A stretch of DNA of 31,872 bases from a virus (IMGVR_UViG_3300045988_180666), one strand, 5' to 3'; counted from the stretch's first letter, positions 8,919 through 31,872 are shown. A program made the numbers and translations. Notes: generated by a model not told the origin, from the letters alone.

Positions 8919-9720
8919 AAGCTATATTGTGGCTAGCCTTGTAGGCGGTGGAATCTCTATATTTGGCGAAGTCATCGATGTTATCGTCTATGAGGGAGAG
9001 TAGGCTGAAGAAGAGTTTGTCTCTCGCCCTGAGGTCGATGGAATCGCCGTTTTTTGTGATATGGCACCCGATGAAATCGTAGATGCGCATGATGGCGACC
9101 CGATGGGAGGTGGTCGGGAACTGAGCCTTGCGCTCCTCTTCGAGCAACTGGTCTATCTGTGCATCGGAGAGCTCTCGGCGCAGGAAGGTCTCGGCTTGGT
9201 CTATCTCGCCCTTGTGCGCCACGAGGTCATCGAAGGTAAGCTTGCCGGGGATGCCGCAGAACTTGTTGAGGATGTATGGCGACCAAATGAAGGAGCGGAT
9301 GGTGTTGAAGGCTTGCAAGCTGTCAGCCCAGCCCTCGACCTGTCGCAATCGGTTGATGACGTTGTGCTGGGCGTAGTCTCGCCTGTAGGCAAGCTCGTGC
9401 TCCATGGCATCGACACGAGCCTGTGAGGCTGGGGCGATGTTGTCGTTGGAGACCACCCCGAAGCCGTTGTCGGTCATGATGATGTCGTGGGAGTGGAGAC
9501 TATCGAGGAAGGTGGCCAGTATGACATAGTCTCTGGCGTAGCGCTGCAGGGGCGAGTCTTCGGTCGAGACCGCTTGCTCGGCATCTGCGCCCACGACGGT
9601 GGCGATAAGATCGTCAAAATGGTTCTCGAAGGATGGCTGCATCTTGGTGAAGACATCCTCGGAGGCTGCCGCCACGAATGGCAGCAGCTGCTCGAACTGG
9701 TTTATATCAATCTGTATCAT
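8875..9720 (-). CDS. hypothetical phage protein (possible head-tail adaptor)
   Basis: The track ORF is 8875..9762. The internal ATG at 9720 (MIQIDINQFEQLLPF...) is preferred because it overlaps the upstream gene by 14 nt rather than 56 nt. The start remains uncertain. Confidence 0.5.
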   Translation of the reverse strand: MIQIDINQFEQLLPFVAAASEDVFTKMQPSFENHFDDLIATVVGADAEQAVSTEDSPLQRYARDYVILATFLDSLHSHDIIMTDNGFGVVSNDNIAPASQARVDAMEHELAYRRDYAQHNVINRLRQVEGWADSLQAFNTIRSFIWSPYILNKFCGIPGKLTFDDLVAHKGEIDQAETFLRRELSDAQIDQLLEEERKAQFPTTSHRVAIMRIYDFIGCHITKNGDSIDLRARDKLFFSLLSLIDDNIDDFAKYRDSTAYKASHNIAYENNADDTTFFFAG

Positions 9721-11113
9721 CTTGTTGCTTTGATTTTTGGTTGTTGGAAACTTGCTTGGCATCCTTGTTCTCGTCGAGGGTGGTGAGCATGATGAGCGGC
9801 ACGTCTGGATAGACCTTCTGCTCCCAGTGGTTGAAGTAGATGACCACCCAGTGAACGGTCTCCATGAGGTCGTGGAACGCCTTCTCTATCGACTGCTTGA
9901 GGGTGAAGAGCTCTCGCTTGTCTGAGCCAGAGTTGTTGGTTTGGCTCTTGCCCGGTGTGGCGCCCACGAGATTAGGGTGGATGTTGTCGGCATAACACTG
10001 CATGTTGTTGCTCTCGGCGATGTCGTCGCTGTAGTCACCGCCATCCTTTGAGGTGTCGATGCGCGTGATGCGCACCATCTTTACCTCTTTGCCATCAGGT
10101 GTGGTGTAATAGCCCGCTATCCAGAGCTTGCCGCTATTCTCGATGCCTGAGATGAAGGAGCGGATTTTTTCTTTCTCCTTCAGCTTGCGCTCCTTTTGCT
10201 TTGCCTTGTCGGTGATGTGCTCCTCTTGGAAGATGCCACGCCAATAGTCGTTGTGTATCTCTACGAGGTAAGGGATGGCAGCGTGGTTTTTGAGCTTTGC
10301 CATCTTGCCGATGGCGATGAGCCGGGAGATGTCGTACCACTTGTCTCGGAAGATGGCGCTGTAGTAGGGCACGGGGTAGTATTGACTGCCAGGAGTAGGG
10401 AAGCGAGTCACGATGGCGAAGACTCTGTCTTTGCACTTTGCTCCACCCGTCTGTCTGGTCAGGGTCTGTCCGCTTTGACCGTCGAGCCCCATGCGCTGCT
10501 GTAGGTCGCCCAGTGGGTCTAGCTCGTCGAGGAGTGGCAGCACCTCGATGTTGTCGGGTTTGACGGCATTGCGCCAGTTGGTATAGAGCACGTATTCGGA
10601 GCGACCGTTTTTGCTCTGGGTGAACCGACAGTAGCACGCCTCTTTGTGCCGGATGCCCACGATGCGATCGCCCTTTTTGTTGAGGATGATGGCTGAGACA
10701 CAAAAGAAGAAGTACTTCATGTCTGTGATTTGCTCGAGGAAGAAGCGCGAGAGGTTGTTGTGCATCTTGAAGAGGTTGACCTCTTTGTCTTGTGTCGGAA
10801 GCTTTGTCTTGATGTCGTTGTACTGGAAGCCCATGCCGTAGCAGGTGAGCACGTTGAAGAGCTTGTTTTGCGCCATCACGCTGCTCTCGCCGATGTTTTT
10901 GATGAGCTGGTAGGGCAGCTTGTTGTCTGCCCCGAAGGGGATGTAGGTGTATCTTTGCTTGTCCACCTCTACGGAGACGGTGGGTGTGGTACCATCATCA
11001 TCGAAGATGGATGAGGACTCGACGAAGCCGCTGGTGGGCGACGAGGTCTGGTAATCGAGCACCTCGCCCATGGTGGCGTATGTGATGTCTATGTTATTGC
11101 TTTTGTCTGCCAT
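9707..11113 (-). CDS. putative portal protein
   Basis: The track ORF extends to 11284, but its first 57 codons overlap 11119..11379 and look non-protein-like. The ATG at 11113 (MADKSNNIDITYATMGE...) gives 468 aa. Size, the polar/acidic C-terminal tail and the position ahead of adaptor/tail genes suggest a portal. No motif-level proof. Confidence 0.45.
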   Translation of the reverse strand: MADKSNNIDITYATMGEVLDYQTSSPTSGFVESSSIFDDDGTTPTVSVEVDKQRYTYIPFGADNKLPYQLIKNIGESSVMAQNKLFNVLTCYGMGFQYNDIKTKLPTQDKEVNLFKMHNNLSRFFLEQITDMKYFFFCVSAIILNKKGDRIVGIRHKEACYCRFTQSKNGRSEYVLYTNWRNAVKPDNIEVLPLLDELDPLGDLQQRMGLDGQSGQTLTRQTGGAKCKDRVFAIVTRFPTPGSQYYPVPYYSAIFRDKWYDISRLIAIGKMAKLKNHAAIPYLVEIHNDYWRGIFQEEHITDKAKQKERKLKEKEKIRSFISGIENSGKLWIAGYYTTPDGKEVKMVRITRIDTSKDGGDYSDDIAESNNMQCYADNIHPNLVGATPGKSQTNNSGSDKRELFTLKQSIEKAFHDLMETVHWVVIYFNHWEQKVYPDVPLIMLTTLDENKDAKQVSNNQKSKQQDDTD

Positions 11114-11118
11114 AATCT

Positions 11119-11379
11119 TTATAAGTATATTGAATGGTCGTTGTATCTGAAGATGAAAATGTCTCTCACCTTGCGTATCTGGTGGTTGACTGGGTTGTAG
11201 AGGGTGTGGGTGCCGTTTTGCCAGGATGAGGACTTGACGAGCCATCCCCTGTACTGGATGATGGAACCATCGCCGCCCTTCCAACAGTCGATGTCAACGG
11301 GCGAGCGGTCGATGCGCGAGATGTCGAGGGCACGGCGCAGCTCGTTGATGTGTATTGCCTTGGGTGTCTTGTCTGCCAT
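11119..11379 (-). CDS. hypothetical small phage protein
   Basis: 86 aa with ATG at 11379. 5-nt gap to the putative portal start. Confidence 0.5.
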   Translation of the reverse strand: MADKTPKAIHINELRRALDISRIDRSPVDIDCWKGGDGSIIQYRGWLVKSSSWQNGTHTLYNPVNHQIRKVRDIFIFRYNDHSIYL

Positions 11380-12635: not shown

Positions 12636-12947
12636 TTACTCTTCGGGCTGTGCGCAGTTGATTATCCAGACGAGTCTGCCACCCTCGACAGACTTCATCT
12701 TGAAGCCGTGCTCGACCATGTACTCGGTGATGACGGGGATGGGAGCGACGACCATGCCGCTGATGGCCTCTTGTATATCTTTGGAGGATAGGAAGTCAAC
12801 GCATTGGCTGTATGGGTCATCGCCCGGTGTGTCGCCCTCGAAGTAAGCGTCGAGCGCCATGCGCACATAGTCGATCTTGCTCTCTTGCTCTGACTGTTGC
12901 TGCTCGTCGCTGTTAGCACTGAAGCCCATCACACGCATACGTTTCAT
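12636..12947 (-). CDS. hypothetical small acidic protein
   Basis: 103 aa with ATG at 12947. ATGA-type 4-nt overlap with the upstream gene, and followed by a strong intrinsic terminator. Confidence 0.55.
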   Translation of the reverse strand: MKRMRVMGFSANSDEQQQSEQESKIDYVRMALDAYFEGDTPGDDPYSQCVDFLSSKDIQEAISGMVVAPIPVITEYMVEHGFKMKSVEGGRLVWIINCAQPEE

Positions 12948-13213
12948 GCCTCACCTCCTTTCGTCTCCAGTGCTATGTTGATGGTCTTGAAGAGCTTGCT
13001 CATGTGGTCGAAGTTGTTGAGCATGAGTAGCACTTTGTCGGCACCGCCGAGGTCTTCGACACAGTTGGTCACCACCTCGTCTGAGATAAGCACCTTTTTG
13101 ACTTGCTCTAGGTACTCGATGAAGTAGCTGAGCTGGTTGACATCCATCATTTCTACGAGCGCATTCCAGACCTCTGCTGTCATGTGCATATTTGTTGCGT
13201 TGTTTGTGTTCAT
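12944..13213 (-). CDS. hypothetical small protein
   Basis: 89 aa with ATG at 13213. 4-nt overlaps on both sides indicate translational coupling. Confidence 0.55.
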   Translation of the reverse strand: MNTNNATNMHMTAEVWNALVEMMDVNQLSYFIEYLEQVKKVLISDEVVTNCVEDLGGADKVLLMLNNFDHMSKLFKTINIALETKGGEA

Positions 13214-13461
13214 GCTACGACTCCTCCCATCAGATAACCACCAAAGAAAACCACTGCCATGAAGGCTGCGAAGCCTAGTGTGGCCTTGACCACCTCGCCG
13301 TAGGTCACGCTCTCGTCGCAGAGTGCGGTGAAGGTCTCGCTCTCGGTCTTGGCGAGCTTCTTGATTTCACACTTGAGGGTATTGATACCCTCCTCTACGC
13401 TGATGCCTGCAGGTCTCACCTGCGCATCACTAATTAAAATTGAATTCTGCATAATTGCCAT
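13210..13461 (-). CDS. small tail-anchored membrane protein (holin-like or exclusion-type, unproven)
   Basis: The track ORF starts at 13575. The first 38 codons are AT-rich and contain a 14-bp inverted-repeat pair, so the ATG at 13461 (MAIMQNSILISDAQ...) or at 13452 is preferred. The C-terminus ATLGFAAFMAVVFFGGYLMGGVVA is a clear hydrophobic helix. Confidence 0.5.
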   Translation of the reverse strand: MAIMQNSILISDAQVRPAGISVEEGINTLKCEIKKLAKTESETFTALCDESVTYGEVVKATLGFAAFMAVVFFGGYLMGGVVA

Positions 13462-13709
13462 CTTATAACCATTATAGACCGACCTTGATGTATAAATACA
13501 ATGGTGGCGGTCACATTCACCGTTGGTTATAAGATGGTAGCTTTCCCAGCGAAGGGCAAGTATCTTACGGATCATGCAACCGCCATATTGAAAAGACCTT
13601 TTTCCCGCTGCCGGGAAAATGATACTTTATAGGCATAAAAAAAGCCCACGGCGTGAAGCCTAGGCGAAACAGTCGCCATCGCTGAGTAGATTACTACTAT
13701 CTTATAACC
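13458..13709. repeat. three copies of ATCTTATAACC (two extend to the 14-mer CCATCTTATAACCA in inverted orientation)
   Basis: 13460-13470 (+), 13525-13535 (inverted) and 13699-13709 (+, at the predicted start site of the orphan promoter). Confidence 0.6.
13637..13665 (-). terminator. intrinsic terminator about 45-70 nt downstream of the orphan promoter
   Basis: Minus-strand GCCUAGGC-UUCAC-GCCGUGGGC (8 bp with one bulge) followed by U7. Confidence 0.6.
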
Positions 13710-13714
13710 GATGG

Positions 13715-13746
13715 CAAAAGTACGAAGAATAATTGGAACCGCCAAA
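13715..13746 (-). promoter_or_regulatory. full consensus promoter (-33 TTTG, 20-nt spacer, -7 TACTTTTG) with no ORF directly behind it
   Basis: Plus-strand CAAAAGTA at 13715-13722 and CAAA at 13743-13746. Confidence 0.55.
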
Positions 13747-13816
13747 AAAAAAGCGAGAAATTTTGAAATAAATGACTTTTTTATGTTTTAGAGCATAAAA
13801 CAAGGGGGTGAGGAAC

Positions 13817-13848
13817 GAAAAAGCCCCGGATGCTCACGCACCCGAGGC
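13817..13848 (-). terminator. intrinsic terminator of the AT-rich three-gene operon
   Basis: Minus-strand GCCUCGGG-UGCGUGAGCA-UCCGGGGC followed by UUUUUC, beginning 7 nt after the stop at 13855. Confidence 0.65.
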
Positions 13849-13854
13849 TGACAG

Positions 13855-14247
13855 TTATTTTTGGAAATAAACTTTTAAAGGGATTGAATTCTCCACATTG
13901 CCAATTTTGAAAGAGAACTGATAGTTGCCCTCTGCAGGGAACTGGAGGTCGGAGAACTCAAAGATGAAGTTGCTGAAGAGAAACTCATCTGAAGGGTGTG
14001 GCTCAATCTTGGAATTGATGGGCTGGCCAAGAATCATCTTGCCAGTGCTCATCTCTGTAACCTCTGCCGAGAACTCTTGCTGAAGTTTGCTTTCCTCGCT
14101 GTTCATCTTAACTCTCGCTACCATGAAGAGGTTGCTCTTAGGCAGCGGTGCTTTTCTTACCACATAGTGGTCAAAAGTGCCCACGATGGTAAGTTTGCCG
14201 TCATTATCTTGTGCAAAGTCACACAATGCAAGAATATCTATGTTCAT
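13855..14247 (-). CDS. hypothetical protein, third gene of AT-rich ORFan operon
   Basis: 130 aa (MNIDILALCDFAQDNDGKLTIVGTFDHYVV...), predicted all-beta by composition. ATG at 14247 overlaps the upstream stop by 4 nt. A terminator hairpin begins 7 nt after the stop. Confidence 0.65.
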   Translation of the reverse strand: MNIDILALCDFAQDNDGKLTIVGTFDHYVVRKAPLPKSNLFMVARVKMNSEESKLQQEFSAEVTEMSTGKMILGQPINSKIEPHPSDEFLFSNFIFEFSDLQFPAEGNYQFSFKIGNVENSIPLKVYFQK

Positions 14248-15340: not shown

Positions 15341-16024
15341 TTATAGCTTTCCTTTGTCGTGGTAGCTGTAGAAGCCATCCTCAGCCAAGATGATATGGTC
15401 CATCAAGAAAAGTCTCATCACCTCGCACGCCTTGGCTATCTTCTGCGTGAGCATATCGTCCGCCTTGCTCGGCTGCGTGCTGTTCGATGGGTGGTTGTGT
15501 GCCACGGCGATGATGGTTGCATTGTTGAGCACGGCTTCTTTCATTATCAGTCGAACGTCCACCGCTGTCTCGGTGATGCCTCCCTCGCTGAGCTTGGTGC
15601 ACTTTATCAGCCTAAAGTTTTGGTTCATCAGCACTACCCAAAAGCCCTCTGTCTCATTGCAGCCTATCATTGGGCGAAGATAGTTGTAGAGTGCCAGGCT
15701 GCTGCCTAGGTCGGTGTTTCTCGCTACCTTTTCCATTTGGTAGCGTCTGCCTAGCTCGATGGCTGCCTGTAGGGCTATCGCCTTGCAGTCTCCAATTCCT
15801 GGTACCACTTCCAGGTCTTCTATTCTCGCCTTGCCGATGTTGCGAAGCGAGTTGCCCATGATGTTATAAATCTGTCGTGCCTGCTCTTGGCTGTCCTTGG
15901 TACCTGCCCCTCTGTTGATTACCAAAGAAATCAAGTCAACGTTGGTAAGGGTGTCGAAACCTTGGTTATAGGCTCTGTACTGCGGTCTCTCCTCCATACA
16001 AAGATTGTTATAATTTTGTCTCAT
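15341..16024 (-). CDS. radC: RadC-family JAB/MPN domain protein
   Basis: 227 aa. The N-terminal part is HhH-like (LEVVPGIGDCKAIALQAAIELGRR). The C-terminal JAMM motif is intact: E in ETEGFWVVLMN, then AHNHPSNSTQPSKADDMLT (HxHx7SxxD). Confidence 0.85.
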   Translation of the reverse strand: MRQNYNNLCMEERPQYRAYNQGFDTLTNVDLISLVINRGAGTKDSQEQARQIYNIMGNSLRNIGKARIEDLEVVPGIGDCKAIALQAAIELGRRYQMEKVARNTDLGSSLALYNYLRPMIGCNETEGFWVVLMNQNFRLIKCTKLSEGGITETAVDVRLIMKEAVLNNATIIAVAHNHPSNSTQPSKADDMLTQKIAKACEVMRLFLMDHIILAEDGFYSYHDKGKL

Positions 16025-16039
16025 ATCTTTTGTTATTTG

Positions 16040-16564
16040 TTAGTTATACATTCTCTTTGTTCTCGCTAGGAACATCGCTCCCATCACTTGTGCGCCACAT
16101 TCGGCTAGCTCGTTGGCGAACTCTCGGGCGGTCGCTCCGCTCGTCACCACGTCGTCGAAGATGATGACTTTCTTTCCGCTGAAGTACTCTCTATCGAGTG
16201 CCACTCTGTAGTCGAAGCTCTCACACACTCTGTCTGTGCTGAAGTGCTTGGCTGTGCGCTCTCCATAGATGGAAATGTGCTCGTTTCCGTTCTGTACCTT
16301 TGCGCCTTGGCTCACCTTTTGGGCGAAGCGAGAAAAGCGCTTGGTGTACTTCTTTGAGTTGGCTGCTGGAGCGCAAACCATCACGAAGTCGCTGGCTTTG
16401 TCGCCATAGGTGTTGACGAAAGAGCTGACCACCATATCGGCAGCTGCGTCTGTCGCCCACTGCTTTCCATCCTTGAAGGCAAAGATGAAGTTTCTCACTT
16501 GCTCTGCTTGTGCTGAGCGGTCGAAACGCTTGGAGCTGTACTCGTAATAATTGAAAGTTTTCAT
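16040..16564 (-). CDS. ComF-like phosphoribosyltransferase (PRTase) domain protein
   Basis: 174 aa. Canonical PRPP-binding loop KKVIIFDDVVTSGATAREFANELAECGA. The upstream segment VCAPAANSKKYTKRFSRFAQKVS resembles the ComF-type R.F.Q region. No N-terminal Cys4 zinc finger is present. Only 15 nt separate it from radC. Confidence 0.8.
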   Translation of the reverse strand: MKTFNYYEYSSKRFDRSAQAEQVRNFIFAFKDGKQWATDAAADMVVSSFVNTYGDKASDFVMVCAPAANSKKYTKRFSRFAQKVSQGAKVQNGNEHISIYGERTAKHFSTDRVCESFDYRVALDREYFSGKKVIIFDDVVTSGATAREFANELAECGAQVMGAMFLARTKRMYN

Positions 16565-17462: not shown

Positions 17463-19064
17463 CTATAGCATGGAACCCGTGGCGATGTAGCCATCAGCCT
17501 GAGGGTATTTCTCCATGCCAATCATGAGCGTGTCGTAGGCATCGGAGCCATCGGTGCGAGCCTCCAACTTATCCTCCTCGGTCTCAGCCAGCTTCTCGCC
17601 TCGCTTATCCTTCTTGCCGTTGTAGACCCCGGCCAGGCGGATGGAGATGAGCAGGTCTTCGTTGTTCTCGCTGTTGATCATCGAGCGATGCTCAGCCTTG
17701 CCGAGGAACATGCGGTTGAGCAGAAGCATCTTTTCGAGATGTCCCATCGGGTTGCCCAGATAGACCTCGTTGACATACCAGCCATGGTCGGTGAGGTAGT
17801 CGGTGATGAAGGTATGGAAGTCATCGTTCATCAGGGCGTAGTTGTTGCCCACGAAGGTGGAGTCGTAGTAGAAGTTGACCTCTTTGCACCGATGGTACTC
17901 ATAGTACTGCATGAACTTGTCGAGCAGGGCTGGCAGCTTCTCCTCATACTTCACGAAGATGCTCTTGAGGCAGCGTGCCTCGCCCCGCAGGTTGTCTTGT
18001 CCGACGGCTATCCAGTTGATGAGGGCGTTGGCATCGAAGGCGATGCAGAGCGGACGGTCGGGGTCAACGTCGGCATCCATTCTGGAATCTACATGCTTGA
18101 GCTTGTCGATGTCGTAGCCCAAGCCATCGAGGTAGGCGAGGTTGGGCGCCGTGTATAGGTTGGCATCCCTGAGGTTGGAGTAGAAGCCATCGAGCGAGAT
18201 GGAAGGTCGCTTGCACATGATGGAGGTCTGGAAGGTGAGGGCAGGGAGGTCTCGCTTCATCTGCTTGATGAACTCCATGCCGAGCACCTCGATGTTATAG
18301 ACCGATGAGTACTCTTTATAGAAGAGTGCCTTGGAGCGCAGTTGCGCCAGGAGCTGACCAATCTCTCGGAGTCGGCGCTGGGCATAGCCTGAGACATGGC
18401 CCGAGGTCTTGATGCGGTTGCGTATGTCATACTCCTCTACCACGAGCGAGGCGATGGCGTCGATGAGCAGCTGGTCGCAGTCTTTCTTGTAGTTGAGGAA
18501 CCAGGAGCCCTTCTTGGTCACGGGCATATCAGAGGTGATGAGCATGCCATGGTGGTAGTAGTGCTGGCCGAAGAGGTTGACGTTGCCTCGATTGGCAGGG
18601 AAGGTCTCGTCTTTGAGCTGTTCGAAGTTGATGAACTTCGCCTCGTCGATGTCGAGGTAGTCGAGCGAGAGGGAGTTGGAGGTACCCTTGCGGTCTTGCG
18701 AGATGATGGTACCGATGGAGCCGTTATAGAAAGAGATGGTGTTCTCCCAGTTGCTGGGCGGTATGACCGGGTCGGGCCATCCCAGTTTTTTGGGAGGCTT
18801 GACCCCGATGAGATAATGCTTGCCCCGGTGGAAGCCCCATCGCTCCCAGTGCTGAAGCATCGACGGTATGGTGTTGGTGAGGCATCGCTTGGTGTTGGCG
18901 GATACGAAGCCGCCGTTGCTGCCAGGCATGCGCTGCATGTTGCGCAGGTTGAAGGTGGCGTGGAGAATGCTCTTGCCGATGCCTCGACCGCCCACGACCA
19001 CGTTGTCGCGGGCGGAGATGAGGTTGACCTCCATCTGGGCTGGGTTGAGATATTGATCTATCAT
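17463..19064 (-). CDS. terL: terminase large subunit
   Basis: 533 aa. Walker A is VVGGRGIGKS and Walker B-like is LSLDYLDIDEA, followed by a C-terminal nuclease-sized domain. The start overlaps the upstream gene in an ATGA arrangement. Confidence 0.85.
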   Translation of the reverse strand: MIDQYLNPAQMEVNLISARDNVVVGGRGIGKSILHATFNLRNMQRMPGSNGGFVSANTKRCLTNTIPSMLQHWERWGFHRGKHYLIGVKPPKKLGWPDPVIPPSNWENTISFYNGSIGTIISQDRKGTSNSLSLDYLDIDEAKFINFEQLKDETFPANRGNVNLFGQHYYHHGMLITSDMPVTKKGSWFLNYKKDCDQLLIDAIASLVVEEYDIRNRIKTSGHVSGYAQRRLREIGQLLAQLRSKALFYKEYSSVYNIEVLGMEFIKQMKRDLPALTFQTSIMCKRPSISLDGFYSNLRDANLYTAPNLAYLDGLGYDIDKLKHVDSRMDADVDPDRPLCIAFDANALINWIAVGQDNLRGEARCLKSIFVKYEEKLPALLDKFMQYYEYHRCKEVNFYYDSTFVGNNYALMNDDFHTFITDYLTDHGWYVNEVYLGNPMGHLEKMLLLNRMFLGKAEHRSMINSENNEDLLISIRLAGVYNGKKDKRGEKLAETEEDKLEARTDGSDAYDTLMIGMEKYPQADGYIATGSML

Positions 19065-23027: not shown

Positions 23028-24053
23028 TTATGCAAACTGATTTAAAACATCCAACACTTGATCTGAGCAGAAATCCTCGACCTTGGTGTCATCGACAGCA
23101 GTGTGCGTGTCGCCACCAGGCTCTCCCTCCAGATCCTTCACTTTATCCTTCAGGTCATCTCTCTCCTTTTCGAGATTCTTGACCTTAGTCTCTAACTCCT
23201 TCTTCTCGTCCTTGACCTTCTGAAGCTCTGTGTCTTTGTCGGTCACGGCCTTGGAGTCGGCAGCGATCTTATCCTCCAGTTTCTGCATCTGCTCCTGTGA
23301 GATTGTGCAGTTCTTTGCGGAATCTTCTGCCTCAATGCCCTCGATATTGAGGACATTGTTGATGTGAGTCCATTTTTTGATCATATTAATAATTTTATTT
23401 TGTGATTTATCTTTGCCGAATAATCGGTCGATGATGCTTGGCTTTTTATCATACCAGGAGTTAACAACCTCTGGGAGAACAGGAAGGTTGTTGTACTTGA
23501 TGAAGTCTTGCGTCTGCTCGGTGATGTCGGCAGGCTTGCCATCCATGGCTTCATCGACGAGACCCAGTTCGATGCACTCATCGACGGTGTGCCACATCGC
23601 TTCGGACATCACCTTGACGATGTCCTCGTGCTTCTTGCCCGAGCGATCGCAGTAAACGTTGGCGATGATGTTGTCGATTTTCTGCTGGTTCTCTTGCTGT
23701 TTTTGAAGTTGCTCGATGAGCGAGCCTATCTGCTCCTCGTTGAGCGCAGACCACACAAACTGCTCGGTAGAGCACTTGTGTACCAGGAGCAAGCTATATT
23801 TGCTCATGCGAATCTTGCTGGCACCCATCGCACAGATGGTGGCAGCAGAGGCAGAGAAGCCCGCCTGGAAGTCAACGGTCACGTCGCCATGGGACTTGAA
23901 CATCTGACAGATGGCGAGACCTGCGGAGACCTCGCCACCCAAGGAGTCGATGGCAACATCGACGTGCTTATCTTTGTTGGCCTTAAGAACATCGCGAACC
24001 ATGAGCTTGGTCCACGAGCCAATATATCCTGTGATAGAAATTTGGTACTTCAT
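23028..24053 (-). CDS. ClpP-like prohead serine protease fused to coiled-coil scaffold domain
   Basis: 341 aa. The N-terminal half has ClpP/S14-like motifs (DSLGGEVSAGLAI; Ser region QAGFSASAATICAMGA; His region LLLVHKCS). The C-terminal part is a K/E/D coiled coil (KVKDEKKELETKVKNLEKERDDLKDKVKDLEGE). Confidence 0.8.
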   Translation of the reverse strand: MKYQISITGYIGSWTKLMVRDVLKANKDKHVDVAIDSLGGEVSAGLAICQMFKSHGDVTVDFQAGFSASAATICAMGASKIRMSKYSLLLVHKCSTEQFVWSALNEEQIGSLIEQLQKQQENQQKIDNIIANVYCDRSGKKHEDIVKVMSEAMWHTVDECIELGLVDEAMDGKPADITEQTQDFIKYNNLPVLPEVVNSWYDKKPSIIDRLFGKDKSQNKIINMIKKWTHINNVLNIEGIEAEDSAKNCTISQEQMQKLEDKIAADSKAVTDKDTELQKVKDEKKELETKVKNLEKERDDLKDKVKDLEGEPGGDTHTAVDDTKVEDFCSDQVLDVLNQFA

Positions 24054-28968: not shown

Positions 28969-29088
28969 TTATTTTTTGTCGCATAGAGCCTTTGGCTCAT
29001 ACTCGACGTATCTGTGGAGAGGGTGGCAGTATCTGCCATTGATGCAGTTGCTGCCATCCTCGCACTTTTGGCATTTAATCGGTGGCAT
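28969..29088 (-). CDS. possible 39-aa Cys-rich (zinc-ribbon-like) peptide
   Basis: Hand translation gives MPPIKCQKCEDGSNCINGRYCHPLHRYVEYEPKALCDKK. The ATG at 29088 overlaps the end of 29075..29386 by 14 nt. It is below the ORF-track size cut-off. Confidence 0.3.
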   Translation of the reverse strand: MPPIKCQKCEDGSNCINGRYCHPLHRYVEYEPKALCDKK

Positions 29089-29386
29089 CGACTTTTATAT
29101 CAAAAGTGTCGTTGTGTAGCAACATCTTGGTATGAACATAAATTGGCTTTTGCTCATCCTCATCCCATCCAACCTCTCGGAAGTCTCTGCCATCGATATA
29201 GCATTCGGTGGCGTATCCTTTGTCGGTCCACTCTACGATATGGTCTTTGTCGAACTCGTCTCTTGCTGGCACTGTAGCCAGAACACGAGTGCCAAACTTG
29301 CTGTAGCTAATCTCGTGTATGGTTACGTTAGGATATTTCTCGATGATTGCCTCCTCGATAGATTTTGTCTTAGTCTTCTTTTTCAT
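29075..29386 (-). CDS. hypothetical early phage protein
   Basis: 103 aa with an ATG start, part of the early leftward operon. Confidence 0.55.
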   Translation of the reverse strand: MKKKTKTKSIEEAIIEKYPNVTIHEISYSKFGTRVLATVPARDEFDKDHIVEWTDKGYATECYIDGRDFREVGWDEDEQKPIYVHTKMLLHNDTFDIKVDATD

Positions 29387-29576
29387 TGTTCTTCATTCTG
29401 AATTTAACAATACCTGCCACGATGCCGTCTTCTTGGTCATCGTAGAACATATTTAAATCTGTTGTGCCCTTATGGAGTGTACCATAGGACACGTCAACGG
29501 CAACGCTGGCATCCTCGAAATCTTTGAGGATGGCTTGAAGCTGTTTGCTGTTGCATCTGACTGTCATTTTTCCCAT
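29370..29576 (-). CDS. hypothetical early phage protein
   Basis: 68 aa, overlapping both neighbours by 13-17 nt. Confidence 0.45.
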   Translation of the reverse strand: MGKMTVRCNSKQLQAILKDFEDASVAVDVSYGTLHKGTTDLNMFYDDQEDGIVAGIVKFRMKNNEKED

Positions 29577-29788
29577 GATCCATCATTGATAATTTGCTCG
29601 ATGACCTCTCTGTCGATGGCACGCCAAGTATTGGTGCGCATCTTATTGTAGATGGTGTTCTGGCTCATCTCTAGCTTTAGCTGCAGTGTGGCCATGAACT
29701 TGCTTCTCTTTTTGCGTGGTATCTCATTATACCATGCGAGGATGATATTTTCATCATCATTTTTTTGTTTTTTTCTTGCATATTCCAA
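29564..29788 (-). CDS. small HTH-like early protein (Cro/excisionase-like position)
   Basis: 74 aa, first ORF after the leftward early promoter. The segment RSKFMATLQLKLEMSQNTIYNKMRTNTW looks HTH-like. The only start at the 5' end is TTG, so the start is uncertain. Confidence 0.45.
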   Translation of the reverse strand: MEYARKKQKNDDENIILAWYNEIPRKKRSKFMATLQLKLEMSQNTIYNKMRTNTWRAIDREVIEQIINDGSWEK

Positions 29789-29798
29789 TATTTATTAT

Positions 29799-29806
29799 TA
29801 ATTTTG
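29799..29806 (+). promoter_or_regulatory. -7 box TAATTTTG, candidate rightward promoter for the repressor gene
   Basis: The plus-strand TAATTTTG is separated by 3 nt from the leftward -7 box. The repressor ATG is at 29903. Confidence 0.4.
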
Positions 29807-29809
29807 TTG

Positions 29810-29817
29810 CAAAGTTA
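29810..29817 (-). promoter_or_regulatory. -7 box TAACTTTG, leftward early promoter
   Basis: Plus-strand GCAAAGTTA lies 22 nt upstream of the first early ORF. Confidence 0.5.
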
Positions 29818-29902
29818 GTAATAAAAATCGGAAAATACTAACGAAAGTAAGTAAAAACACCTACGATAATAGGTTAAATATTATTAATTAAATTAGGTAA
29901 TT

Positions 29903-30280
29903 ATGTTTAATGGTCAGATAATCAGAAAGTTAATGTCGGATGCTGGCTTAACTAAAAAAGAGTTTGAAAGACGTATGTTCGGTAGTAAATCGACCGACCT
30001 CAACCATTTGGAAAAAGCGAAGAATCTTCGCAGTGACACTCTCGAACGTCTGCGTGATGTGTTGAAGTGCTCTATGGATGACTTCTTTACAGCACCCTCA
30101 TGGGCTGAGAACGGAAAGGGGACAGTCGTAGGCTCTAACAATGTGCTGTCAACAGTAGCCATCGGCAACGAAGTGATGGAAGCCCAATATCTCAAGGAGT
30201 TGCTCTTGGAGAAGGACAAACGCATCAGCACTTTGGAAAATTATATCAAGCTTCTGGAGACTAACTTAAATAAGGACTAA
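29903..30280 (+). CDS. XRE-family HTH regulator, putative prophage repressor
   Basis: 125 aa, the only phage gene on the plus strand and divergent from the early operon. The N-terminal HTH is IIRKLMSDAGLTKKEFERRMFGSKSTDLNHLEKAKNLRSDTLERLRDVLKCSMDDFF. The C-terminal part is a coiled coil (QYLKELLLEKDKRISTLENYIKLLE). Confidence 0.75.
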   Translation: MFNGQIIRKLMSDAGLTKKEFERRMFGSKSTDLNHLEKAKNLRSDTLERLRDVLKCSMDDFFTAPSWAENGKGTVVGSNNVLSTVAIGNEVMEAQYLKELLLEKDKRISTLENYIKLLETNLNKD

Positions 30281-30510
30281 TACGAAACATAATTCGTAAG
30301 ATGAATCCTTATATATAATAAGGTGTATAAAATATATCGTATAATCTCAGCAGTGATATCCAACTCGTTAGTCCTGCCGCCGCAACTAGTTTCGGGTAAG
30401 AAGTTGGTAAACAACATCTTATCCGATTTCTGTTTTTCTATTGGAACTATATCAGAACGAAATACTTTCCATTCCACATTCCTTTGATATTCAATATTTA
30501 ACACTTATTA

Positions 30511-30542
30511 TTTGCGTATATTGAATAAAAGTGCTACTTTTG
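30511..30542 (+). promoter_or_regulatory. host TetR gene promoter (-33 TTTG, 20-nt spacer, -7 TACTTTTG)
   Basis: TTTG at 30511-30514 and TACTTTTG at 30535-30542. The ATG at 30592 follows. Confidence 0.55.
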
Positions 30543-30565
30543 CACATTGATAATTTATTGTGCAA
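30540..30565. promoter_or_regulatory. 7-bp perfect inverted repeat TTGCACA-N12-TGTGCAA overlapping the TetR -7 box / start site (likely autoregulatory operator)
   Basis: Read directly: arms at 30540-30546 and 30559-30565. Confidence 0.5.
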
Positions 30566-30591
30566 CCAAATCTCGATGGAGGTACTTCGTT

Positions 30592-31188
30592 ATGTCAATA
30601 TCAAAAACTAGACAGAAATTAGTGGATGTCGCTCGACAACTCTTTGCAAAGAACGGAATCGCCAATACAACGATGAATGACATCGCTGTGGCTTCTGGTA
30701 AGGGACGTCGCACGCTTTATACCTATTTTAGTCGTAAGGAGGACGTCTATTACGCAGTGATAGAGTCGGAATTGGAGCGCCTTTCTGACAAACTTGACGA
30801 AGTGGCCGCCAGTAAGATTCGACCTCAAGACAAAATCATCGAATTGATTTATACCCACTTGAGCATGATCAAGGAGACTGTTGTCAGAAATGGAAATCTG
30901 AGAGCTGAGTTCTTCCGCAATATTTGGATGGTGGAAAAGGCTCGCAAGAATTTCGATGAAGACGAGATAGAACTTCTCAGGAAGGTTTATTCCGAGGGCA
31001 AGGCGGACGGCGAGTTTGACATCGATAATGTAGATTTGGTGGCTGACATCACACACTATTGCATCAAAGGTCTCGAAGTTCCGTTTATCTATGGGCGATT
31101 GGGACATGGCTTGAACGTGGAGTCGAGCAAACCGCTGGTTGCCAAGGTTGTCTATGGTGCTTTAGGAAAGTCGGGAATGAAGTTGTAA
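30592..31188 (+). CDS. TetR/AcrR-family transcriptional regulator (host)
   Basis: The track start at 30547 is TTG; the ATG at 30592 gives MSISKTRQKLVDVARQLFAKNGIANTTMNDIAVASGKGRRTLYTYF, the canonical TetR N-terminal HTH. A consensus promoter and a palindrome lie just upstream. Confidence 0.85.
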   Translation: MSISKTRQKLVDVARQLFAKNGIANTTMNDIAVASGKGRRTLYTYFSRKEDVYYAVIESELERLSDKLDEVAASKIRPQDKIIELIYTHLSMIKETVVRNGNLRAEFFRNIWMVEKARKNFDEDEIELLRKVYSEGKADGEFDIDNVDLVADITHYCIKGLEVPFIYGRLGHGLNVESSKPLVAKVVYGALGKSGMKL

Positions 31189-31330
31189 GAGATTGCTTGC
31201 TAGAATAGCGAAATGCTCTTTTTCTGTTATTCAAAGTATATTGAATGATGGACTAAACTTTCTTGCAAATTCTCAGCAAATCACAAATTGAATAATATAA
31301 AGTGTTAAATATCAAATAAATAAAAAGAAA

Positions 31331-31872
31331 ATGGGATTATTAACAGGTAAGACAGCCCTTATTACAGGTGCTGCACGCGGCATCGGTAAAGCTGTCGCAA
31401 TGAAATTCGCATCAGAAGGTGCTAACATCGCATTCACAGACCTAGTTCTCAATGACGACATGGCTGCTGGTTTGGAAGCTACTCGTAAGGAAATCGAGGC
31501 TCTTGGCGTAACATGCCGTGCTTATGCTGGTAACGCTGCTGATTTCGCGGAGACAGACAAGACTGTTAAGCAGATTCATGCTGACTTCGGTTCTATCGAT
31601 ATTTTGGTTAACAACGCTGGTATCACTAAGGATGGTTTGATGCTCCGTATGAGCGAGGCTCAGTGGGATGCTGTGTTGAACGTTAACTTGAAGTCTGCTT
31701 TCAACTTCATCCACGCTTGTTCTCCTATCATGCTCCGTCAGCGCAGCGGTTCTATCATCAACATGGCTTCTGTAGTAGGTGTTCATGGTAACGCAGGTCA
31801 GTGCAACTATGCAGCTTCTAAGGCTGGTATGATTGCTTTGGCTAAGTCTATCGCTCAGGAGTTGGGTCCTAA
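31331..31872 (+). CDS. fabG: 3-oxoacyl-[acyl-carrier-protein] reductase FabG, partial (runs off right edge)
   Basis: Hand translation from the ATG at 31331: MGLLTGKTALITGAARGIGKAVAMKFASEGANIAF...ILVNNAGITKDGLMLRMSEAQWDAVLNVNLKSAF...NYAASKAGMIALAKSIAQELGP. This shows the SDR TGxxxGIG, NNAG and YxxxK motifs in the FabG pattern. Confidence 0.9.
   Translation, partial: MGLLTGKTALITGAARGIGKAVAMKFASEGANIAFTDLVLNDDMAAGLEATRKEIEALGVTCRAYAGNAADFAETDKTVKQIHADFGSIDILVNNAGITKDGLMLRMSEAQWDAVLNVNLKSAFNFIHACSPIMLRQRSGSIINMASVVGVHGNAGQCNYAASKAGMIALAKSIAQELGP

Follow-up and report, generated by a model that had tools for sequence, protein, structure and literature searches.

Three matched repeat copies in the operon leader of Segatella copri phages: a probable cis-encoded RNA switch

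The virus sequence IMGVR_UViG_3300045988_180666, 31,872 nt long and hereafter called the window, is by its gene content that of a phage. Its long open reading frames (ORFs) lie on the minus strand, the exceptions noted being a helix-turn-helix (HTH) gene and a TetR-family gene past 29,000, both on the plus strand. Our subject is a ∼400-nt intergenic region, read on the minus strand, which contains the leader of an operon and is situated between the strong terminator of a DUF6941 gene and an ORF for a small membrane protein (TM80), and in which one short sequence recurs three times. The stop codon of TM80, the first gene past the leader, overlaps the start of the next gene, and by this arrangement the two small genes that follow, p89 and p103, are probably translationally coupled to it (Table 1). 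No family was found for TM80, p89 or p103 in Pfam, PHROGs, NCBIfam or PADLOC. Past p103, in the same orientation, come a gene for a 353-aa protein and then a portal homologue (9707–11200). Coordinates are those of the whole window throughout; the locus is read on the minus strand, and the repeat copies are numbered 1–3 by rising coordinate.

The 11-mer ATCTTATAACC is found exactly at three sites, 13460–13470 (+), 13525–13535 (−) and 13699–13709 (+). When up to one mismatch is allowed there are 4 matches in the window versus 0.32 expected, and none of 100 dinucleotide shuffles reaches 4. Copies 1 and 2 extend into a perfect inverted pair with 52 nt between its arms, the 14-mers CCATCTTATAACCA (13458–13471) and TGGTTATAAGATGG (13524–13537), and copy 3, taken over 13697–13710, agrees with the 14-mer at 12 of 14 positions. 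An initial annotation of this sequence had pointed out the three exact copies, the inverted pair ∼52 bp apart and the improbability of a chance origin, all of which we confirm. As minus-strand RNA the copies read GGUUAUAAGAU (copy 3), CCAUCUUAUAACCA (copy 2) and UGGUUAUAAGAUGG (copy 1), such that copy 2 is complementary to both of the others. Neither the window nor ∼1.08 Mb of flanks from relatives yielded a full fourth copy or an unlinked target, and no paralogous element was found elsewhere in the window. At the 3′ end of the coding sequence for TM80 (13227–13240) a fourth, partial copy occurs in sense orientation, CCATCAGATAACCA, with 2 mismatches; relatives neither keep it nor match it to their repeat version.

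Relatives were gathered in three sets: 28 viral contigs with the exact inverted pair as query; 60 loci reached via the 353-aa protein encoded ∼1 kb downstream, 51 of which have the element at the same place; and at least 120 contigs matching a conserved-core pattern that leaves out the repeats. The second and third sets, neither of them picked through the repeats, give the 166 distinct complete leaders listed, from Segatella copri phages and prophages. A repeat-free pattern of conserved element parts matches Segatella (Prevotella) copri genomes, including two isolates, and on these matches the host is this gut bacterium; OF03-3 and MSK.21.95 are examples of lysogenic strains. In one isolate the element lies within a 171-kb scaffold, which implies that the phage is temperate. 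Counting all finds, over 200 viral contigs from the gut have the element, as do isolates of Segatella copri and GenBank record MT835559 (Mexican faecal samples).

Among close relatives the non-coding block 13764–13440 is 99.6–100% identical, with an unrelated upstream flank (58% aligned identity) on one side and, on the other, a coding sequence whose identity falls from 95% to 84% to 63% just downstream of the leader. Even phage pairs with <1% leader divergence differ at 17% of TM80 four-fold degenerate sites. The leader thus either is far more constrained than the gene behind it or moves between phages as a unit. A second, diverged leader class occupies the same position and is 66–81% identical to the window. 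The initial annotation would have counted absence of the repeats from related phages against its reading; every relative that has the leader has them.

Within this conserved background the repeats themselves change, and they change together. At least 34 repeat versions occur among the 166 leaders, some of them 1 nt longer; examples are GGTTATAAGAT, GCTTATAAGAT, GCGTTAAAGAT, GGTTACAAGATGAT, GCTTAACAGATGAT, GTCTACAAGATGAT and GCTAACAAAGATGA. All three copies are of the same version, perfectly matched, in 153/166 leaders, and copy 3 is perfect against copy 2 in 155/166. The diverged class gives the same picture with 131 leaders, none chosen by repeats: a 14/14 match to copy 2 is found for copy 3 in 120 of them and for copy 1 in 125, while control 14-mers taken from nearby always have at least 3 mismatches. 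Repeat columns vary 3.4–4.7 times more per site than the leader backbone, and repeat divergence equals or exceeds that of TM80 four-fold sites, though each change needs three coordinated substitutions. Two leaders appear to have been caught midway in a single version change from GCTTAAC to GATTAAC, one with the new form in copy 3 only (L150) and the other with it in copies 3 and 2, not copy 1 (L081).

Inverted copies flanking a short segment could also be recombination sites that flip the segment between them, like those of Bacteroidales invertible promoters, or could be kept identical by gene conversion, and inverted repeats around short segments have been described as common phase-variation switches in Bacteroidales. 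The collected loci speak strongly against this. The 52-nt spacer has the same orientation in 28/28 loci with the exact inverted pair (0 inverted), and the leaders reached via the 353-aa protein (51/51) all align collinearly with the window from one end of the element to the other. Moreover the promoter lies outside both segments, conserved symmetric recombinase-binding arms are lacking and no recombinase gene is adjacent, such that we find inversion or gene conversion scarcely credible.

A single complete Bacteroidota-type promoter (motif TTTG-N17-23-TAnnTTTG) was found when both strands of 13300–13900 were scanned; the sigma-A consensus of the phylum is TAnnTTTG at −7 with TTTG at about −33 (PMC7366714). 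The promoter block is 97% identical among relatives whose upstream flanks are unrelated, and its motifs are retained in the diverged class. Going by this motif, minus-strand transcription would start at ∼13711 (predicted range ∼13712–13709), and copy 3 would therefore be the 5′ end of the predicted RNA, followed by a structured leader of ∼170 nt and then by copies 2 and 1. The initial annotation had likewise set copy 3 on the predicted transcription start; it had called the promoter an orphan, which it is not, as it drives the minus-strand leader. The terminator of the upstream DUF6941 gene is predicted to insulate the leader from upstream transcription. A weak Rfam match to the 3′ end of isrL at 13817–13900 (−), with 18.8 bits and E = 0.003 against a gathering score of 35, coincides with this terminator and most likely reflects terminator similarity only.

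The start codon of TM80 was settled by comparison. ATG 13452 is the sole start codon in frame at every locus, and its product (MQNSIL…, 80 aa) has the length commonest in relatives. An extra A follows 13474 in 7 close relatives, and the diverged class has an extra nucleotide between the repeat's ATG and ATGCAG; because of these insertions ATGs 13575 and 13461 lose frame in relatives. A longer ORF from ATG 13575 (121 aa) or from ATG 13461 is thereby excluded. A conserved upstream ORF or dual-start motif was rejected also, since one class has the upstream ATGs in frame but others have lost either the frame or the ATGs themselves. Copy 1 thus lies upstream of the start codon and not over it, as had been proposed from a start at 13461.

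Table 1. Features of the leader and of the first genes behind it
Feature	Position in window	Strand	Remarks
Intrinsic terminator of the upstream cargo gene (DUF6941, 13855–14247)	13822–13849	−	12-bp stem with 8 G-C pairs, then UUUUU; predicted −22.8 kcal/mol
Promoter block	13715–13764	−	5′ edge of conserved element 13764; −33 TTTG 13746–13743; 20-nt spacer; −7 TACTTTTG 13722–13715
Copy 3, proposed anti-sequestor	13699–13709	−	∼+1 to +13 of predicted transcript; pairing with copy 2 runs to 13694
Hairpin H1 (AGUAG-UAAU-CUACU)	13685–13698	−	100% of cells paired; 3/5 pairs changed on both sides
Long-range extension helix, 5′ strand (partner 13543–13552)	13679–13688	−	95.9% paired; 3 both-side changes, 4 one-side changes into G-U
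Hairpin H2 (13679–13662), overlapped by T1	13637–13679	−	H2 99.2% paired
Candidate intrinsic terminator T1	stem 13665–13644, U7 13643–13637	−	GC-rich stem; −11.7 kcal/mol (window), −12.8 kcal/mol (diverged class)
Hairpin T2 (UUUUCCCG-GCAG-CGGGAAAA)	13590–13621	−	Terminator-like, U-run displaced; z = −3.1; 98.5% paired, G-U-compatible changes
Stem-loop SL-B, carrying copy 2	13505–13585	−	z = −4.6 (window), −5.5 (relative L041); stem 100% paired
Copy 2, proposed switching strand	13524–13537	−	Complements copies 1 and 3
Copy 1, proposed ribosome-loading region	13458–13471	−	−6 to −19 of AUG 13452
UAUGCAG, including start AUG (13452–13450); pairs with UUGCAUG	13447–13453	−	Columns 173–179:324–330 100% paired; one C-G to U-G change, rest invariant
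TM80	13210–13452	−	80 aa; soluble N-terminal part, C-terminal transmembrane (hydrophobic) segment, tail-anchored; first gene past leader
p89 (12944–13213) and p103 (12636–12947)	12636–13213	−	Starts overlap preceding stops (ATGA)

Pairing was counted in a 41-sequence alignment (A1) that was not fitted to any structure, with 500 shuffles and with controls in which one partner was slid by 1–3 columns. The pairing of copy 3 with copy 2, together with its extension helix, has 94.2% of cells paired and 11 pairs changed on both sides. The pairing of copy 2 with copy 1, together with that of UUGCAUG (13579–13573) with UAUGCAG, has 97.6% paired and 8 pairs changed on both sides. A third set, of H1, H2 and the SL-B stem, has 99.8% paired and 4 such pairs. 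For each of these three structures 0/500 shuffles match the observed percentage paired or the covariation score, and the slid controls are 20–53% paired. Taken singly, the copy 3:copy 2 helix (columns 8–25:218–235) has 8 pairs changed on both sides and is present in the minimum-free-energy fold, while the copy 2:copy 1 helix (columns 219–235:304–320) is 96.5% paired with 8 both-side changes. Both repeat pairings, and four further helices besides, hold their pairing through compensatory changes. RNAalifold recovers the copy 2:copy 1 hairpin unaided, and the single-sequence fold of the window RNA has the copy 3:copy 2 closure (z = −4.5). The two repeat helices share nucleotides and so must be alternatives; for the same reason H1 and the extended copy 3:copy 2 pairing are mutually exclusive.

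Helices outside the repeats contain 161 G-U cells versus 3 C-A cells, such that the pairings fit minus-strand RNA only, not the plus strand or duplex DNA. This bears on the function first proposed for the copies, that of operators at which a phage repressor, possibly by looping the DNA, would hold the unit in its off state. Copy 3 does overlap the predicted transcription start, copy 1 is near the gene start, and the window has a gene for a Cro/C1-type HTH protein (29903–30280). However, at least 34 versions, some of other length, matched in three places, would need as many co-evolved protein specificities in a narrow phage group, whereas changing together in three places is trivial for RNA–RNA complementarity. 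Dyad symmetry is missing in most versions, and the co-variation reaches the adjoining non-repeat helices, where changes to G-U only would be meaningless in duplex DNA. We therefore regard operators as very improbable. What survives of the initial annotation is that the copies are functional, that they would form one regulatory unit with the promoter and that one state of this unit would silence the membrane-protein gene; the protein operators and DNA looping are given up.

Further elements of the fold stand between and around the copies. In SL-B the stem changes include U-A to C-G and several that are G-U-compatible; an internal loop leaves copy 2 unpaired in its variable half, AAGAU within the stem-loop (13566–13562) is the partner of the constant half, and the 5′ strand contains the UUGCAUG that is the alternative partner of the start-codon region. 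The T1 stem is directly followed by an invariant U7 and is itself nearly invariant, so it has no covariation support; if T1 terminates transcription, as its shape predicts, it would release a ∼70-nt RNA with copy 3 at its 5′ end. T2 (UUUUCC…GGAAAA) is replaced by two tandem copies in one leader subclass (L066 and similar loci), and is thus a peripheral module that varies in an RNA invariant elsewhere. The SL-B 3′ strand is followed by ACCA in the window class (13500–13511, −) and by ACCC in the diverged class. A tRNA-like 3′ end is the RNase P processing guide of the P1 c4 and P4 CI RNAs. Such a tRNA-like RCCA end was considered as an RNase P signal here and was set aside, ACCA not being conserved; no tRNA or tmRNA was found in the window.

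We consider it probable that the 5′ leader of this minus-strand phage operon contains a cis-encoded RNA switch and that the repeats are the segments that interact in it, copy 3 acting as anti-sequestor, copy 2 as sequestor and copy 1 as the ribosome-loading region. In Bacteroidota, whose mRNAs lack Shine-Dalgarno sequences, it is the structure of the mRNA and the A residues upstream that tune initiation (PMC7366714; also outlined in PMC6847099), with A enrichment at −3, −6 and −11 to −15 (PMC7366714); the invariant AAGA of copy 1 falls in this A-rich zone favouring initiation. In the proposed OFF state copy 2 would pair with the A-rich copy 1, and UUGCAUG with the AUG region, which would block initiation of TM80 and, via the overlapping stop and start codons, probably that of p89 and p103. 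In the ON state copy 2 and its neighbouring sequence would instead pair with copy 3 and its extension, closing a ∼185-nt domain and freeing the start region. SL-B would be a third, local fold, showing the variable half of copy 2 unpaired as a nucleation site for either partner. When copy 1 or copy 3 is blocked in turn, the predicted energies of ON-type and OFF-type folds differ by −1.2 ± 2.1 of ∼−90 kcal/mol, and such near-equal energies are what a bistable element would show. We infer that translation is the controlled step and that some trigger moves the RNA from one state to the other.

Several points weigh against the switch. Transcription start, RNA species and translational effect are all predictions, and from one sequence to another the thermodynamic predictions disagree on the ground state. 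Because the copies are nearly always exact repeats at the DNA level, their own helices lack informative G-U pairs, and the strand assignment rests on neighbouring helices. Several of the compensatory changes separate just two sequence classes and may be single events. Mismatched copies occur in four leaders (L058, L077, L091 and L157), which look like recombinants or assembly chimeras. Finally, in a relative whose 353-aa protein is 91% identical (L034, 1–5062), the terminase, a RadC remnant and the gene of the 353-aa protein follow one another, with leader, TM80, p89 and p103 all missing; the whole cassette is thus dispensable for a phage, or was lost in this one.

Among the mismatched leaders that of the Prevotella metagenome-assembled genome UMGS1464 (L091, ∼1037–1250) has GGTTAAAAGACGAT as copies 3 and 1 and a copy 2 complementary to GTCTACAAGATGAT, with 4 mismatches. 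Either this leader is an assembly chimera, the coverage being 4.6×, or it is natural and has a sequestor unable to bind the targets beside it.

The same helices could belong to a riboswitch-type sensor. Copy 3:copy 2 would then be the closing helix P1 of a ∼160-nt conserved core that binds a metabolite, a protein or an RNA; binding would stabilize P1 and keep copy 2 off copy 1, such that translation is on, and the diversity of the repeats would be neutral covariation of P1 and the expression platform. The architecture is the classic one, with P1 formed by the two ends of the core and its 3′ strand shared with the sequestor of the initiation region, and the core is extremely conserved, including many unpaired nucleotides. 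Yet no Rfam family fits: a search of the whole window against Rfam 15 at gathering score gave no match, and one of 13350–13900 at E up to 10 gave only chance-level isrL, Hrs12 and psRNA6. In addition, two hairpins in the core are unusual for a ligand pocket, one being terminator-like with U7 and the other varying between subclasses by duplication or replacement, and P1 turns over very fast for leaders differing by 1–6% elsewhere. A ligand sensor is in our judgement unlikely.

A further possibility, which we hold only tentatively, is that version-specific riboregulation in trans comes on top of the cis switch, the repeat versions being specificities that limit cross-talk between co-resident related phages. 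It could take two forms. In one, the ∼70-nt leader RNA ending at T1 would bind copy 2 of full-length transcripts and switch them on, as IsrK does; in the other, a processed SL-B RNA would bind copies 1 and 3 of other transcripts, silencing or terminating them in the manner of P4 CI. T1, with its GC-rich stem (energies in Table 1) and the invariant U7 directly behind, and SL-B, which folds by itself into a very stable hairpin and leaves copy 2 exposed in its variable half, would suit such roles; the target–antisense–target order equals that of seqA–CI–seqC in P4, and the logic of short and long isoforms equals that of IsrK (PMC4825925). The excess variability of the repeat columns over the backbone, at a rate as fast as or faster than that of four-fold sites despite triple changes, hints at selection for new specificities, which would fit action in trans. 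Against this, the short or processed RNA species are predictions, the T1 stem being invariant and hence silent as to covariation; no fourth, unlinked target was found in the window or the related flanks, and no locus with two elements is among the 166 leaders listed. The variable positions are moreover those least constrained by the A-rich initiation signal, so that compensated drift, together with transfer of whole leaders between phages, could inflate diversity without selection.

Should the short leader RNA or the processed SL-B RNA of each phage act in trans on same-version leaders only, the leader might serve RNA self/non-self recognition among co-circulating Segatella copri phages, an idea we offer with considerable reservation. 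It would amount to activation or immunity that is specific to the version and is exerted on an operon of virion genes, with the 34 or more versions as specificities held by frequency-dependent selection.

The window encodes a head maturation protease (23028–24053) and a protein with a weak match to the terminase large subunit (17463–19064). The product of 9707–11200 (−), of 497 aa, is a distant portal homologue, with 26% identity and E = 9e-23 to that of Polaribacter phage Leef_1 and with matches to Microcystis phage portals as well; it has no Pfam, PHROG or NCBIfam family, and PDB sequence searches were empty for both it and the 353-aa protein. By this homology the portal gene is split from terminase and head protease by the cargo region and the leader.

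Between terminase and leader lies a defence-like cargo pair, in whose place relatives have other cargo. It consists of a phosphoribosyltransferase (PRTase, 16040–16564, −), with PADLOC matches to the defence toxins ShosT (1.6e-9) and PsyrT (9e-9), and an adjoining RadC-like JAB protein (15341–16024, −). In 29000–31872, where GC goes down to ∼0.40, the Cro/C1-type HTH gene (+) is accompanied by the TetR-family gene (30547–31188, +); this part may be a lysogeny module or the prophage–host boundary.

Little has been charted of how RNA controls genes in Bacteroidota and in the phages that infect them. In a phylum without Shine-Dalgarno sequences, structure that masks the A-rich ribosome-loading region should be a main route of translational control; the leader would be a natural example, and its 34 or more matched triplets serve as a natural compensatory-mutation experiment. 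If the versions are trans specificities, they would constitute RNA-encoded heteroimmunity or kin recognition among phages of a highly prevalent human gut bacterium, and could supply orthogonal RNA switch parts for Bacteroidota engineering. The self/non-self recognition considered above would, if true, be without precedent in Bacteroidota and would have late genes, not early ones, as its targets.

Four known systems invite comparison. The translational ON riboswitch is like the leader in that a closing helix is made from the two ends of a core and its 3′ strand alternatively sequesters the initiation region; the leader differs in having no Rfam aptamer-family match and a closing helix that turns over unusually fast.

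For the hok family, of the type I toxin–antitoxin kind, the folding pathway was reportedly inferred from coupled covariations. In hok mRNA, as outlined in PMC9841398, the 5′-terminal tac and the ribosome-binding site (RBS) compete for one anti-RBS box (ucb), the closed form being untranslatable and the open form translatable. Similarly, copies 3 and 1 of the leader compete for copy 2, with both helices co-varying, and a small membrane protein is encoded in both cases. The leader differs from hok in lacking a version-matched element like fbi, the fold-back at the mRNA 3′ end that holds the 5′ element: within 900 nt downstream, own-version matches, sense or antisense, are no better than those of other loci's versions. 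Nor is there an antisense (Sok-like) promoter on the plus strand in 13300–13900, by a motif test only. The leader also lacks a Shine-Dalgarno sequence, the host being of the Bacteroidota; TM80, at 80 aa, has a soluble N-terminal part; and there is no sequence or Rfam similarity between the two.

In P4 immunity, as summarized in PMC4825925 (after Sabbattini 1995 and Briani 2000), CI RNA (seqB) and its targets seqA and seqC are on one transcript. The leader has the same target–antisense–target order (copy 3, copy 2, copy 1) from one promoter, and the phage is temperate in both. The P4 system, in that account, works by premature termination ahead of replication genes by a stable processed RNA, whereas the downstream target of the leader overlaps the translation start of a membrane-protein/portal operon. 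The two are without homology, and no match to the P4 CI or P1–P7 c4 RNA families of Rfam 15 was found in the window at gathering score.

For IsrK of Gifsy-1, a terminator within the leader yields two products, a short RNA and, by read-through, an mRNA that is translationally silent by virtue of an intramolecular helix; the short form carries a sequence that can displace this helix, and two alternative structures have similar energy (PMC4825925). The leader likewise has alternative folds of similar predicted energy. Its candidate terminator T1, a terminator-shaped hairpin with invariant U7, albeit without covariation, may be the counterpart of the one in IsrK. IsrK acts via an upstream ORF and RBS in Salmonella, and its action in trans has been shown, whereas for the leader of a different phylum, again without homology, such action is conjectural. 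In logic the leader is closest to hok tac/ucb/Shine-Dalgarno, P4 seqA–CI–seqC and IsrK, and we would class it as a variant of the three-segment RNA switch that has no homology to these, fits a phylum without Shine-Dalgarno sequences and comes with an unusually rich allelic series.

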